A DNA stretch of 29,042 bases from a virus (lineage: Duplodnaviria > Heunggongvirae > Uroviricota > Caudoviricetes), in IMG/VR virus record IMGVR_UViG_3300029911_000006; one strand, written 5' to 3'. The notes beneath the pieces were generated by a model. The model ran no database searches, was not told where the DNA came from, and worked only from the letters and a program-made list of their open reading frames with translations. Numbering within the stretch: position 1 is the first letter of the stretch; every line of letters begins with the position of its first letter. Both the position numbers and the translations under genes were made by a program. This document shows positions 3,538 through 18,156 of the stretch, in pieces.

Positions 3538-3638
3538 GCAGAGTAATACTGAGAAAATTTTGGTAGTGGGGGAGGGTTATATATTGTCGGGGTAAAAACT
3601 TATTGAACTACGTAGGTCTTATACAGGAGCCCTACACC

Positions 3639-4322
3639 ATGACACTCGTAACCCTCATTTGTTCGAAATGTGGTAAAGAATTCGAAAGACCACTGAAAAC
3701 TCACAACCGTAATTTACGTTTAGGCTACACGACGGCCCAGTGCAGTGCGACCTGTCAAGTGGAACACCTCCGCCCAAAACCATGTGAACATTGTGGAAAC
3801 ACCACAACTAATCCAAGATTTTGTTCATCTAGATGTAATGCTTTAGCTACCTCCAAGTTCAAACCAAAACGGCCAAAACTTGGTCATTGCCGAGTATGTG
3901 GTGACTCAATCAGTAGCCAGAGAGTGTATTGCAAGACTTGTAGAAAACTAGCGGTTTCCAATTCTAAAGATTGGTCGGGGGTGACATTAGGGGAATTACG
4001 TATCAAAAGAAAAGCTAATGGGGACGCTACTGTTTGGGCACACGCCAAAAGGGTGTTTTTCGCCTCCCCTCTACCGAAAGAATGTTGGATATGCGGATAC
4101 TTTAAGCATATCGACGTGTGTCACATCAAGCCTGTGGCTGGGTTTGCGGATGCCACACTTATCTGTGAGATAAATAACCTGAAAAACCTAATGGGTCTTT
4201 GTCGTAATCATCATTGGGAGTTCGATCATGGACAGCTATCCAAAGAGGATAAAGAAAAATTGGTACTCCCGGTAGGATTCGAACCTACGTCTTGCTCTAA
4301 TCTGGAGCTAAACCGGTTATAA
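3639..4322 (+). CDS. HNH homing endonuclease
   Basis: CHIKPVAGF ... NLMGLCRNHHWEFDHG HNH motif with several CxxC pairs; AGGAG RBS before the ATG at 3639; AT-rich relative to its flanks; 3' end overlaps a tRNA on the opposite strand. Confidence 0.8.
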   Translation: MTLVTLICSKCGKEFERPLKTHNRNLRLGYTTAQCSATCQVEHLRPKPCEHCGNTTTNPRFCSSRCNALATSKFKPKRPKLGHCRVCGDSISSQRVYCKTCRKLAVSNSKDWSGVTLGELRIKRKANGDATVWAHAKRVFFASPLPKECWICGYFKHIDVCHIKPVAGFADATLICEINNLKNLMGLCRNHHWEFDHGQLSKEDKEKLVLPVGFEPTSCSNLELNRL

Positions 4323-4356
4323 GGCGGTTGCGTTAGACCACTACGCTACGGGAGCC
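4261..4356 (-). tRNA. atypical long (type II-like) tRNA, probable anticodon UAU (AUA reader); identity uncertain
   Basis: GTAGG-TTCGAAT-CCTAC T-arm, 7-bp acceptor with encoded CCA, 4-bp D-arm with GG, anticodon stem ACCGC/CCGGT with loop CTTATAA, 23-nt variable region. Confidence 0.5.
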
Positions 4357-4793: not shown

Positions 4794-4870
4794 TGGTGCG
4801 CCCTCTCGGGCTTGAACCGAGAACCCCCGCGTTATGAGCACGTCGCTCTGACCAATTGAGCTAAGGGCAC
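4794..4870 (-). tRNA. tRNA-Met (anticodon CAU; elongator type, or Ile2 if lysidinylated)
   Basis: GTGCCCT acceptor with G1-C72; loop CTCATAA; CTCGG-TTCAAGC-CCGAG T-arm; CCA encoded. Confidence 0.8.
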
Positions 4871-5206: not shown

Positions 5207-5299
5207 TGGAGGAAGGTGTCGGATTCGAACCCACGGTGCCTATCACTAGGACACTCTAGTTTTCAAGACTAGCGCAATCGACCGCTCTGCCAACCTTCC
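5207..5299 (-). tRNA. tRNA-Ser (anticodon UGA)
   Basis: Acceptor GGAAGGT/ACCTTCC; D-stem GCAG/TTGC; anticodon stem CTAGT/ACTAG with loop CTTGAAA; long variable arm; U73; CCA encoded; one G-G mismatch in the T-stem. Confidence 0.7.
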
Positions 5300-5506: not shown

Positions 5507-5594
5507 TGGCGGAGGCGGAGGGAGTTCAACCCCCAAGTCCTTGCGGAACGTCCCGTTTCGAGCGGGGTGGGCTTAGCACATGCCCAACGCCTCC
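5507..5594 (-). tRNA. tRNA-Ser (anticodon CGA)
   Basis: Acceptor GGAGGCG/CGCCTCC; D-stem GGGC/GCCC; loop CTCGAAA; long variable arm; G73; CCA encoded; unusual T-loop TTGAACT. Confidence 0.6.
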
Positions 5595-5599
5595 AATTT

Positions 5600-5685
5600 T
5601 GGCGGAGAGTCCGGGGGTCGAACCCGGTCAACCTTGCGGTTGTACAGTTTAGCAAACTGCTGCATTACCGTCCTGCCCACTCTCC
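5600..5685 (-). tRNA. tRNA-Ser (anticodon GCU)
   Basis: Acceptor GGAGAGT/ACTCTCC; anticodon stem GCAGT/ACTGT with loop TTGCTAA; 16-nt variable arm; CCGGG-TTCGACC-CCCGG T-arm; G73; CCA encoded; G at position 8. Confidence 0.7.
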
Positions 5686-6605: not shown

Positions 6606-6695
6606 TGGCGGAGAAAGAGGGATTCGAACCCTCGATACCCTTGCGAGTATGCCACCTTTCCAAGGTGGTGCAATCGACCACTCTGCCATCTCTCC
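6606..6695 (-). tRNA. tRNA-Ser (anticodon GGA)
   Basis: Acceptor GGAGAGA/TTTCTCC; D-stem GCAG/TTGC; anticodon stem CCACC/GGTGG with loop TTGGAAA; long variable arm; GAGGG-TTCGAAT-CCCTC; G73; CCA encoded. Confidence 0.8.
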
Positions 6696-17700: not shown

Positions 17701-18156
17701 TTACTTCTGGTGGATAAGAATCGTACCATTCTGCACTTCGATGACGGGATTGGTAATGACCGTGGAACCAGTGGAGGCAACTGGGGCTGAAGTTACTGCT
17801 ACCGGGGTCTTAGCGGCCTGTACGGGGATTGCCATCTTCTGCACGGCGACGATGTAGCGACTGCCGCTGTCCGATGAGATAGGAGTCCAGAAGTAGTCTC
17901 GGTACTGTACCTTGACTTCGTACTGCCCGTTGAGAGCATCCTTCAACTGAGCGTACACTGCGTCGTCGGTGACCGTGCCATTCAGAGGCGTGGTGGAGAA
18001 GGAGCCGGAGCCGCCGTTCATGCCGCCACGGACAATCTCAACTTCGTTGGTCGTGTTGAGTACGCCTTCCTGCGATACCTTGATGACAGAGCCGACCTTC
18101 TCGCCGTTGCCGACAAGATGGGTGCAGCCAGTGAGGGCGAGGGCGGACGTGAGCAA
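17701..18156 (-). CDS. putative lipoprotein (LALTGC lipobox); the true N-terminus probably starts at ATG 18184 in another frame
   Basis: Track ORF starts at TTG 18156. A strong AGGAG-ATG at 18184 encodes MNRRIATSSIA in the -1 frame, which would complete a signal peptide. Confidence 0.5.
   Translation of the reverse strand: MLTSALALTGCTHLVGNGEKVGSVIKVSQEGVLNTTNEVEIVRGGMNGGSGSFSTTPLNGTVTDDAVYAQLKDALNGQYEVKVQYRDYFWTPISSDSGSRYIVAVQKMAIPVQAAKTPVAVTSAPVASTGSTVITNPVIEVQNGTILIHQK

Follow-up and report, generated by a model that had tools for sequence, protein, structure and literature searches.

How can a transfer RNA (tRNA) that reads the isoleucine codon AUA with a plain UAU anticodon be recognised as an isoleucine tRNA, and why should such a molecule carry a long variable arm? 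The question is raised by a gene in IMG/VR record IMGVR_UViG_3300029911_000006, a virus of the Caudoviricetes; we refer to the whole 29,042-nucleotide (nt) stretch analysed here as the window. The gene lies at 4261..4355 on the minus strand and measures 95 nt with its encoded CCA, 92 nt without. That it is a real tRNA is confirmed: ARAGORN calls tRNA-Ile with anticodon tat, and the Rfam model RF00005, whose curated gathering score is 29 bits, gives it 58.6 bits (E 1.9e-10), the top tRNA score in the window. The alignment spans model positions 1-71 and treats some 20 nt of the variable region as an insertion. The initial annotation had proposed an atypical tRNA with a probable UAU anticodon, compatible with AUA reading, and had suggested that tRNA finders and covariance models be consulted; the scores bear it out, although its length of 93 nt has to be corrected and it left the strand unstated.

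A tRNA with a second anticodon-like arm

In the RNA sense the first half of the gene reads GCUCCCG UA GCGU AGUGGUCUA ACGC A ACCGC CUUAUAA CCGGU UUA and the second half GCUC CAGAUUA GAGC AAGAC GUAGG UUCGAAU CCUAC CGGGAGU A CCA. Everything that had been drawn initially is indeed there: the acceptor has 7 base pairs (bp) with G1.U72 and is followed by A73 and an encoded CCA, the D stem has 4 bp and its loop contains GG, the T arm is canonical, and the 23-nt variable region includes a 4-bp stem. G15 and C48 (4289) form the Levitt pair. What had been overlooked is that the loop of the variable arm has 7 nt and is centred on GAU. Two drawings of the anticodon arm had been offered, and both have substance: the version with a C31.C39 mismatch is real, and the version with an AACCG/CGGUU stem and a 9-nt loop is the minimum free energy (MFE) fold of the single sequence.

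Searches with the window copy itself returned little. Megablast of the tRNA cluster against INPHARED found no close relatives, an exact 15-mer of the gene gave only chance matches outside tRNAs in IMG/VR, and a 30-nt pattern gave no match in metagenomes. Distant BLAST placed the same long-armed design in the Lactobacillus Herelleviridae phages LpeD and Lpa804, and later in ENFP1 and 3-521; at these loci two records carry a plain 'tRNA-Ile', and LpeD and Lpa804 have no feature annotated. The pattern TTATA ... CAGATTA ... GGTTCGAATCC, run on IMG/VR and GTDB, matched at least 120 times in the former and in 45 genomes in the latter, mostly Pyrinomonadaceae and Blastocatellia metagenome-assembled genomes (MAGs) with the gene inside arrays of 20-26 tRNAs. 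The family collected in this way comprises 159 unique sequences from 197 loci (viral, metagenomic and MAG, plus the Lactobacillus phages); the best relative of the window gene is identical at 77/95 positions. It is apparently a large and undescribed family of two-armed UAU tRNAs, found both in Acidobacteriota and in phages from marine and freshwater samples rich in Proteobacteria. The Acidobacteriota copies (loci L139-L179 of our collection, GTDB MAGs; L161, for example, is on a 3.37-Mb contig) sit in dense 20-26-tRNA arrays on large contigs and have a lineage-specific C1-G72 acceptor.

The fold is well supported by covariation. In an alignment of 54 relatives, 97.8% of pair cells are standard, compared with 66% after shuffling and 34-48% when partners are slid against each other, and 23 of the 26 pairs show compensatory changes on both sides. 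The tertiary 15:48 pair is kept in every relative (A-U in 44, G-C in 10), as is A73, and RNAalifold independently arrives at the same five arms. The acceptor/T branch is 7/5, with each pair of the 7-bp acceptor and the 5-bp T stem either covarying or invariant. The wobble pair G1.U72, present in the window copy (4355, 4265), is enriched in the family at large, where it occurs in 46% of members as against 12.8% of other tRNAs from the same loci.

For counts of individual positions we parsed 156 members, anchoring the second hairpin on GAU and using a tally of central triplets as a control; an unanchored hairpin finder had settled on alternative registers, such as UUAG/UUAG with loop CGCCAGA, and was replaced. 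The decoding loop is 7 nt long throughout, with a pyrimidine at position 32, U33 in 154/156, UAU in all 156 and A37 in 155/156, and positions 31 and 39 are paired in 139/156. These numbers speak to the earlier suggestion that a 9-nt anticodon loop (CCUUAUAAC) might mark an ochre suppressor or a quadruplet decoder. The MFE fold of the window copy does draw that loop, but the C31.C39 mismatch behind it is private to this copy among the relatives compared, the closest of which is 77/95 identical, while the relatives keep a 7-nt U33-UAU-A37 loop. Moreover, ATA is read as isoleucine in family-bearing loci without any sign of recoding (see below), and the long open reading frames (ORFs) behind the window's codon table run without interruption. 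Suppression or quadruplet decoding thus seems so improbable that we give it next to no credence.

The second hairpin is no less regular than the first. Its stem has 4 bp in 123 members, 5 bp in 22 and 3 bp in 11; its loop always has 7 nt, with consensus Y-A-GAU-N-N. The linker on its 5' side measures 2, 4 or 5 nt across the family and 0 nt in the compact subtype described below, and the 3' linker 5 nt (101 members) or 6 nt (49 members). Neither standard class of tRNA looks like this. Type I tRNAs have a variable loop of 4-5 nt, where the window copy has its 23-nt region with a hairpin. Class II tRNAs have a short loop joined to the T stem by 1-3 nt: in the Ser, Leu and Tyr tRNAs of the same loci, variable-arm loops measure 3-5 nt (mode 4), 3' linkers 1-3 nt (modes 1, 1 and 3) and 5' linkers 0-1 nt.

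What the hairpin does resemble is the anticodon arm of tRNA-Ile(GAU), of which the same loci provided 68 unique genuine genes for comparison. GAU itself, at positions 34-36, is present in 155/156 second arms and in 68/68 genuine genes. Position 32 is a pyrimidine in every second arm (C in 138, U in 18; genuine genes: C in 40, U in 27, A in 1), and position 38 is A in 140/156 and 64/68, respectively. The equivalent of pair 29:41 is C-G in 150/156 second arms, against 44/68 (65%) of genuine genes, whereas the pairs that flank it vary freely. This preference is not a general property of the loci: CAU tRNAs, tRNA-Ile2 among them, have C29-G41 in 25% of cases, no remaining class exceeds 23% and the overall figure is 12%, and the family's own decoding stem has it in only 45%. 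Second arms and genuine genes differ at positions 33 (A in 152/156 second arms; U in 56 and C in 12 genuine genes) and 37 (U in 135/156 second arms; A in 65/68 genuine genes). Judged by these positions, the variable arm is a copy of the tRNA-Ile(GAU) anticodon arm and not an arm of the Leu, Ser or Tyr type. The identity had been called ambiguous on the grounds that a type II architecture does not fit isoleucine; that objection lapses if the long arm is a conserved mimic of an isoleucine anticodon arm.

As to the genuine genes, the 12/68 with C33 depart from a near-universal U33 (for example L037 9161-9234, L072 10874-10950, L140 283-356 and L249 5593-5668; also L131-L133, L287 and L299). At two loci (L049 6404-6477, L090 408-479) a type I tRNA beside the two-armed tRNA matches the Ile(GAU, C33) gene of a neighbour contig (L111 5562-5635) except for G34U; to judge by the sequences, this looks like a natural switch from GAU to UAU.

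Could both arms decode? The UAU arm begins one nucleotide past the D stem, and the stretch between the GAU arm and the T stem has the 5-6 nt of a normal variable loop; in effect, two cloverleaves overlap in one molecule. When the GAU hairpin is cut out in silico, 153/156 members are still called as a type I tRNA, Ile-UAU, and when the UAU arm is cut out instead, 109/156 are called as a type I Ile-GAU. Imagine a stacking switch in which the UAU arm reads AUA and the GAU arm AUU and AUC, so that one tRNA serves all isoleucine codons. The canonical spacing of each arm, the 109 successful excisions and a 3' linker equal to a normal variable loop speak for such a switch. Against it, the ribosome needs U33 and a purine at 37, and because the second arm has lost both (A33 in 152/156, mostly U37) it is probably disabled for decoding; besides, most large arrays with a family member, 43 of 56, already possess a normal tRNA-Ile(GAU). 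We consider dual decoding improbable.

The combination of arms is not tied to one scaffold. A compact second body plan has the same UAU loop, the same GAU hairpin, the same 5-6-nt linker before the T stem and the same 7/5 branch, but a 1-nt linker, a tetraloop D arm and a 7-bp anticodon stem. Since the pairing of UAU with a GAU hairpin occurs in both body plans, it has been selected across unrelated scaffolds. The G1.U72 wobble, too, occurs in both. Variation within the family includes a human-gut lineage with C33 and the decoding loop CCUAUAC, and rare members that keep UAU but have GAC, a valine anticodon, in the second loop (L184, UGGACGA; L213, GAGACUC).

The company of the GAU arm and the meaning of AUA

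A pattern that specifies both arms will find both arms, and we therefore also consider scans that specified fewer elements. When only the variable-arm loop and the T arm were given, about 107 of the 120 viral matches listed belonged to the same UAU family; the few new relatives were all UAU, and the other matches were unrelated chance hits. In metagenomes, a scan for the variable arm and T arm returned 27 matches, all 27 of them UAU tRNAs. Conversely, a scan blind to the variable-arm loop (TTATA, T arm and ACCA only) retrieved 111 unique UAU tRNAs with a long arm. Of these, 108 could be parsed with a GAU-type hairpin, which has GAU at loop positions 3-5 in 107 and GAC in one. Note that the loops so recovered are not all alike: CAGAUUA accounts for 79, CAGAUAA for 7, and UAGAUGA and UAGAUUG for 4 each, and CCGAUUA, CUGAUUA and UAGAUAG also occur. 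Finally, among some 2,200 tRNAs of the family loci no other anticodon was found paired with such an arm. The UAU anticodon and the GAU arm are exclusively associated.

The phage arrays do contain tRNAs of class-II-like form whose anticodons are those of Trp, Thr, Lys, Gly, Glu, Pro or Met. At the tips of their long arms are tetraloops (GCAA, GAAA, UUCG), in no case a loop with the cognate anticodon (examples are L012 5801-5889, L024 307-394, L051 5873-5958, L102 1769-1851, L154 2054-2136, L194 7079-7165 and L244 3241-3326, among others). A separate oddity of the Pyrinomonadaceae arrays is an irregular tRNA-Phe(GAA) about 0.5 kb from the two-armed tRNA, which has CAGAUUA within an oversized D loop lacking GG and a non-canonical T loop, UGCGAUA (L161 1006-1080, L172 5648-5722, L173 2428-2499, L178 2335-2409).

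Two simple explanations for the conserved loop were tried and rejected. By inspection, it shows no convincing complementarity to the anticodon, T or D loop. It might be an RNase E site, AG/AUU fitting the RNase E consensus RN/WUU; but as a general explanation this fails: the G is invariant at a position that the consensus leaves open as N, Lactobacillus phages keep the motif although their hosts are not known to have RNase E, and the link to UAU would go unexplained.

What, then, does AUA mean to these phages? Across 2,519 homologous ORF pairs from family-bearing loci, ATA aligns with I in 43% of cases, V in 16% and L in 14%, a profile nearly that of ATT and ATC and unlike those of Leu, Ser, Tyr, Val and Met codons, with Ile as the best fit. 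ATA codons in family-bearing phages mean isoleucine, which gives no sign of the recoding that the initial annotation had thought worth checking. As for the ATA enrichment that it had proposed to look for, ATA is a minor codon in the window, at 5.7 per 1000 codons and 11% of Ile codons. The two ATA codons of the window's NAD-dependent ligase align with F and V of E. coli LigA.

The arrays point in the same direction. Exactly one family member is present in 54 of 56 large arrays, normal tRNA-Ile(GAU) is also present in 43 of them, and CAU tRNAs number 0-3 per array, mostly two. In 13 of 52 arrays, against a chance expectation of about 2.6, the tRNA that the family member most resembles in acceptor stem, discriminator and D stem is the tRNA-Ile(GAU) of the same array. 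The closest relative of the window phage, L252 (ligase 79% identical), has a similar cluster with three Ser tRNAs, Leu-UAA and Ile-UAU, the last of which (17881-17959, plus strand) is a plain type I tRNA-Ile(UAU) of 79 nt with a large 11-nt D loop. Both designs of AUA decoder are thus found inside one phage group. Because a plain UAU tRNA occupies the same slot in L252, the slot would be that of the AUA decoder and the arm an accessory to it. Taken together, the window tRNA most likely decodes AUA as isoleucine, with isoleucylation itself a prediction from sequence.

A long variable region nevertheless invites the thought of a class II tRNA charged by leucyl-tRNA synthetase (LeuRS), as nematode nev-tRNAs are, or by seryl-tRNA synthetase (SerRS), like the allo-tRNAs, with Leu or Ser entering at AUA through deliberate or tolerated mistranslation. 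Both enzymes ignore the anticodon, A73 is the main bacterial Leu determinant, and there are precedents in the Leu charging of nev-tRNAs (PMC3333845, PMC4300185) and the predominance of UAU among allo-tRNAs (PMC5389517). Yet ATA behaves as Ile in these phages; the discriminator is A, whereas the phages' Ser tRNAs have G73 or U73; the D arm, with its 4-bp stem, resembles type I; the variable hairpin differs in geometry from its counterparts in the co-resident Leu, Ser and Tyr tRNAs; and the branch is 7/5 rather than 8/4. Neither enzyme accounts for the invariant GAU plus C-G pair. Charging by LeuRS or SerRS is in our view quite unlikely.

How the second arm may be read

Having established that the GAU arm occurs only in the company of UAU, we wondered why a UAU tRNA should need it. 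As an elongator tRNA, the molecule would read the rare AUA codon with an unconverted UAU anticodon and, because that anticodon needs no conversion, would be independent of the host's lysidine enzyme, TilS. The cost would be to forfeit the G34 or lysidine-34 determinant. A38 is part of the identity set of E. coli isoleucyl-tRNA synthetase (IleRS). C29-G41 and the complete anticodon are determinants as well (PMC9976931), and E. coli IleRS charges tRNA-Ile(UAU) inefficiently, while Mycoplasma mobile needed an IleRS with R865 (PMC3575796). One scenario is that a host IleRS that is poor at UAU tRNAs would recognise the GAU arm, which keeps the features IleRS reads (G34-A35-U36, Y32, A38 and C29-G41), and attach isoleucine, leaving the UAU arm to perform ribosomal decoding. 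The tRNA would then decode AUA without TilS, its extra arm providing IleRS with the anticodon-arm determinants missing from the UAU anticodon. Restored recognition by IleRS is the most economical account, because the arm reproduces the determinant set and occurs only with UAU; all in all, we regard it as evenly poised between right and wrong.

A bolder version concerns the molecule as a whole. Each arm keeps a canonical distance to one neighbour, so that either could stack beneath the D stem, and alternative stacking might place the GAU arm at the anticodon position while the tRNA is on the enzyme and the UAU arm there while it is on the ribosome. A tRNA with two anticodon arms would in that case uncouple identity, presented by the GAU arm to IleRS, from decoding by the UAU arm, possibly by way of such a stacking switch, and would work independently of both host and TilS. 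We put this forward tentatively. That IleRS is the reader of the arm, and that the arm gains access to its anticodon-binding site, we infer. No protein family recurs near family genes beyond 23 of 196 loci, so that a dedicated phage partner was not found; because no phage-encoded protein recurs nearby, the reader is probably a host factor.

Several observations weigh against IleRS as the reader. First, sampling was pattern-based and every scan demanded GGTTCGAATCC, so the family statistics describe a biased slice. Second, the arm is not obligatory, since L252 manages with a plain UAU tRNA. Third, a short variable arm in a standard L-shaped tRNA cannot reach the IleRS anticodon domain with the acceptor in the active site, so that alternative stacking or a new binding mode is required. 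Fourth, the arm itself is not a perfect copy: it has only four Watson-Crick pairs, the would-be fifth being non-canonical in most members, and the A at loop position 2 is conserved in 96%, more than recognition by IleRS requires. The modified base t6A37, a positive determinant for bacterial IleRS, is impossible on U37. Lastly, a 'tRNA-Ile(UAU)-like RNA' of L. plantarum, which may belong to the family, is reportedly left uncharged by that organism's own IleRS.

One of these points would sit more comfortably with a reader other than IleRS. If AUA is still translated as isoleucine, the GAU arm might be a decoy for an anticodon nuclease or another tRNA-targeting defence, or be read by a modification enzyme. 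With A33 and U37, the arm would be poorly accepted by enzymes that depend on a canonical loop, as an uncleavable decoy should be; the A at loop position 2 would no longer be in excess of need; and C33 in 12/68 genuine tRNA-Ile(GAU) genes suggests some pressure on isoleucine anticodon loops. However, nothing would confine a decoy to one kind of tRNA, or to a tRNA at all, and the arm is seen only with UAU, the one Ile decoder with a known charging problem. Its conserved triplet, A38 and C29-G41 coincide with the IleRS determinant set, and we know of no nuclease specific for tRNA-Ile(GAU). We judge such a factor unlikely.

A further alternative would deny the molecule any role in translation and make it a regulatory or sponge-like RNA, which might titrate IleRS or act on T-box leaders with an AUC specifier, with which the exposed GAU loop could pair. 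There is a precedent of sorts: when six allo-tRNA(UAU) species were given a CUA anticodon, none was active in E. coli, and non-translational roles have been suggested for them (PMC5389517). On the other hand, the canonical decoding loop, T arm, Levitt pair, A73 and CCA of the two-armed family are under purifying selection, and each array has a single copy, which takes the AUA slot. T-box leaders occur largely in Firmicutes and so cannot be the general target of a family that spans Proteobacteria-rich marine and freshwater phages and Acidobacteriota; on this host range we rejected a T-box decoy, and a regulatory RNA of whatever kind strikes us as improbable too.

Genomic setting and relation to known systems

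The two-armed gene is one of seven tRNA genes that ARAGORN finds in the window, all on the minus strand (Table 1); the whole-window Rfam scan listed four of them. The repertoire, with four Ser isoacceptors beside Leu-UAA, Met-CAU and Ile-UAU, is unusual, and a promoter and terminator scan of the cluster found nothing above shuffled sequence. An HNH endonuclease ORF (3603-4322, plus strand; PHROG 1271, E 7e-11) overlaps the 3' 62 nt of the two-armed gene on the opposite strand. HNH endonucleases are the most recurrent neighbours of the family (23 and 18 of 196 loci), and the LpeD copy adjoins one.

Table 1. Parts of the two-armed tRNA gene and the other tRNA genes of the window
Feature	Position	Strand	Basis or remark
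Whole two-armed tRNA-Ile(UAU) gene, encoded CCA included	4261..4355	-	ARAGORN, Rfam, five-helix covariation in 54 relatives
Acceptor 5' strand GCUCCCG, top pair G1.U72 wobble	4349..4355	-	Partner 4265-4271; all 7 pairs covary in family
D arm, 4-bp stem GCGU/ACGC, loop AGUGGUCUA, type-I-like with GG	4330..4346	-	Sequence, family alignment
Decoding anticodon arm ACCGC-CUUAUAA-CCGGU, C31.C39 mismatch	4312..4328	-	ARAGORN, Rfam, MFE fold
Anticodon UAU, reads AUA	4319..4321	-	ARAGORN; 156/156 family members, including scans not specifying UAU
5' linker UUA joining the two arms	4309..4311	-	Sequence
Second, anticodon-arm-like hairpin, stem GCUC/GAGC, 7-nt loop CAGAUUA	4294..4308	-	Stem covariation, loop conservation
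29:41-equivalent C-G pair of second hairpin	4307:4295	-	C-G in 150/156 members
GAU triplet, loop positions 3-5 of second hairpin	4300..4302	-	GAU in 155/156; equals major tRNA-Ile anticodon
3' linker AAGAC, normal 5-nt variable-loop length; last base is C48 of Levitt pair	4289..4293	-	Family linker lengths; 15:48 covariation
T arm GUAGG-UUCGAAU-CCUAC	4272..4288	-	Rfam, family alignment
Acceptor 3' strand CGGGAGU, discriminator A73 (4264), encoded CCA (4261-4263)	4261..4271	-	Sequence; A73 in 54/54 aligned relatives
Leu-UAA	4366-4452	-	ARAGORN; 10 nt upstream of Ile gene
Met-CAU	4794-4870	-	ARAGORN; below Rfam gathering threshold in whole-window scan
Ser-UGA	5207-5299	-	ARAGORN
Ser-CGA	5507-5594	-	ARAGORN; below Rfam gathering threshold in whole-window scan
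Ser-GCU	5600-5685	-	ARAGORN; below Rfam gathering threshold in whole-window scan
Ser-GGA	6606-6695	-	ARAGORN

In the full-text literature searched, which did not extend to subscription papers, we found no description of a cognate-anticodon mimic in the variable arm of a tRNA, and current annotation gives these genes as plain 'tRNA-Ile' or omits them. If the proposal is right, the family would represent a new tRNA architecture, with five arms of which two are of the anticodon type, and a fourth bacterial strategy for decoding AUA beside lysidine, ava2C and adaptation of IleRS or ribosome. It would explain how a phage AUA decoder can work at once in hosts whose IleRS rejects UAU. Reading of the arm by IleRS would also constitute a natural solution to a problem of code engineering, namely how to change an anticodon on which the synthetase chiefly relies for identity. 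Direct tests are possible, as cultured Lactobacillus phages and hosts carry the gene.

How do known systems compare? The class II tRNAs for Leu, Ser and bacterial Tyr share with the family a long, hairpin-forming variable region and a total length of about 85-95 nt. In the same loci, however, class II arms have short loops and linkers, where the loop of the two-armed family has 7 nt and an invariant GAU, the stem a fixed C-G pair, the 3' linker 5-6 nt and the D arm the type-I form. Class II tRNAs have 3-bp D stems and no conserved sequence in the variable-arm loop. The usual AUA decoder of phages and bacteria, tRNA-Ile2(CAU) converted to LAU by TilS, fills the same decoding slot, and it is often phage-supplied where phage ATA usage exceeds that of the host (PMC10688831). 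It depends on lysidine for both isoleucine identity and codon specificity, whereas the two-armed family needs neither C34 nor TilS.

Related in function are the tRNA-Ile2 species with an unmodified UAU anticodon, known from M. mobile, from a suppressor of a B. subtilis tilS deletion and from L. casei, which share lysidine-free reading of AUA, a canonical loop, A73 and isoleucine (PMC3575796, PMC3919564). Their variable loop has the 4-5 nt of an ordinary type I tRNA, and in M. mobile the charging problem was solved by the enzyme (IleRS R865). In the two-armed family it is the tRNA itself that bears the extra GAU arm, and it is phage-borne and host-agnostic.

Related in form are two groups in which a long variable arm and UAU occur together. 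Nematode nev-tRNA-Ile(UAU) likewise combines the two outside the Leu/Ser rule (PMC3333845, PMC4300185), but it is eukaryotic, resembles tRNA-Leu, is charged with Leu in vitro and has no reported anticodon-mimic loop, while ATA in the family's phages means Ile. The allo-tRNAs(UAU) and irregular polycistrons of Mukai et al. (2016) share the long variable arm, the frequent UAU anticodon and the occurrence in Acidobacteria and phage clusters, and the compact subtype even shares their tetraloop D arm and long anticodon stem. Allo-tRNAs, however, have an 8/4 or 9/3 branch and mostly G73 or U73, which implies Ser identity; the two-armed family has a 7/5 branch and A73. A parallel in principle lies outside tRNAs altogether: in the E. 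coli thrS operator and in yeast aminoacyl-tRNA synthetase mRNAs, an anticodon-like hairpin is read by the matching synthetase under the rules of tRNA identity (PMC9976931). Those mimics are regulatory elements of mRNAs, whereas the mimic described here is located inside a tRNA, on which it is proposed to confer identity.

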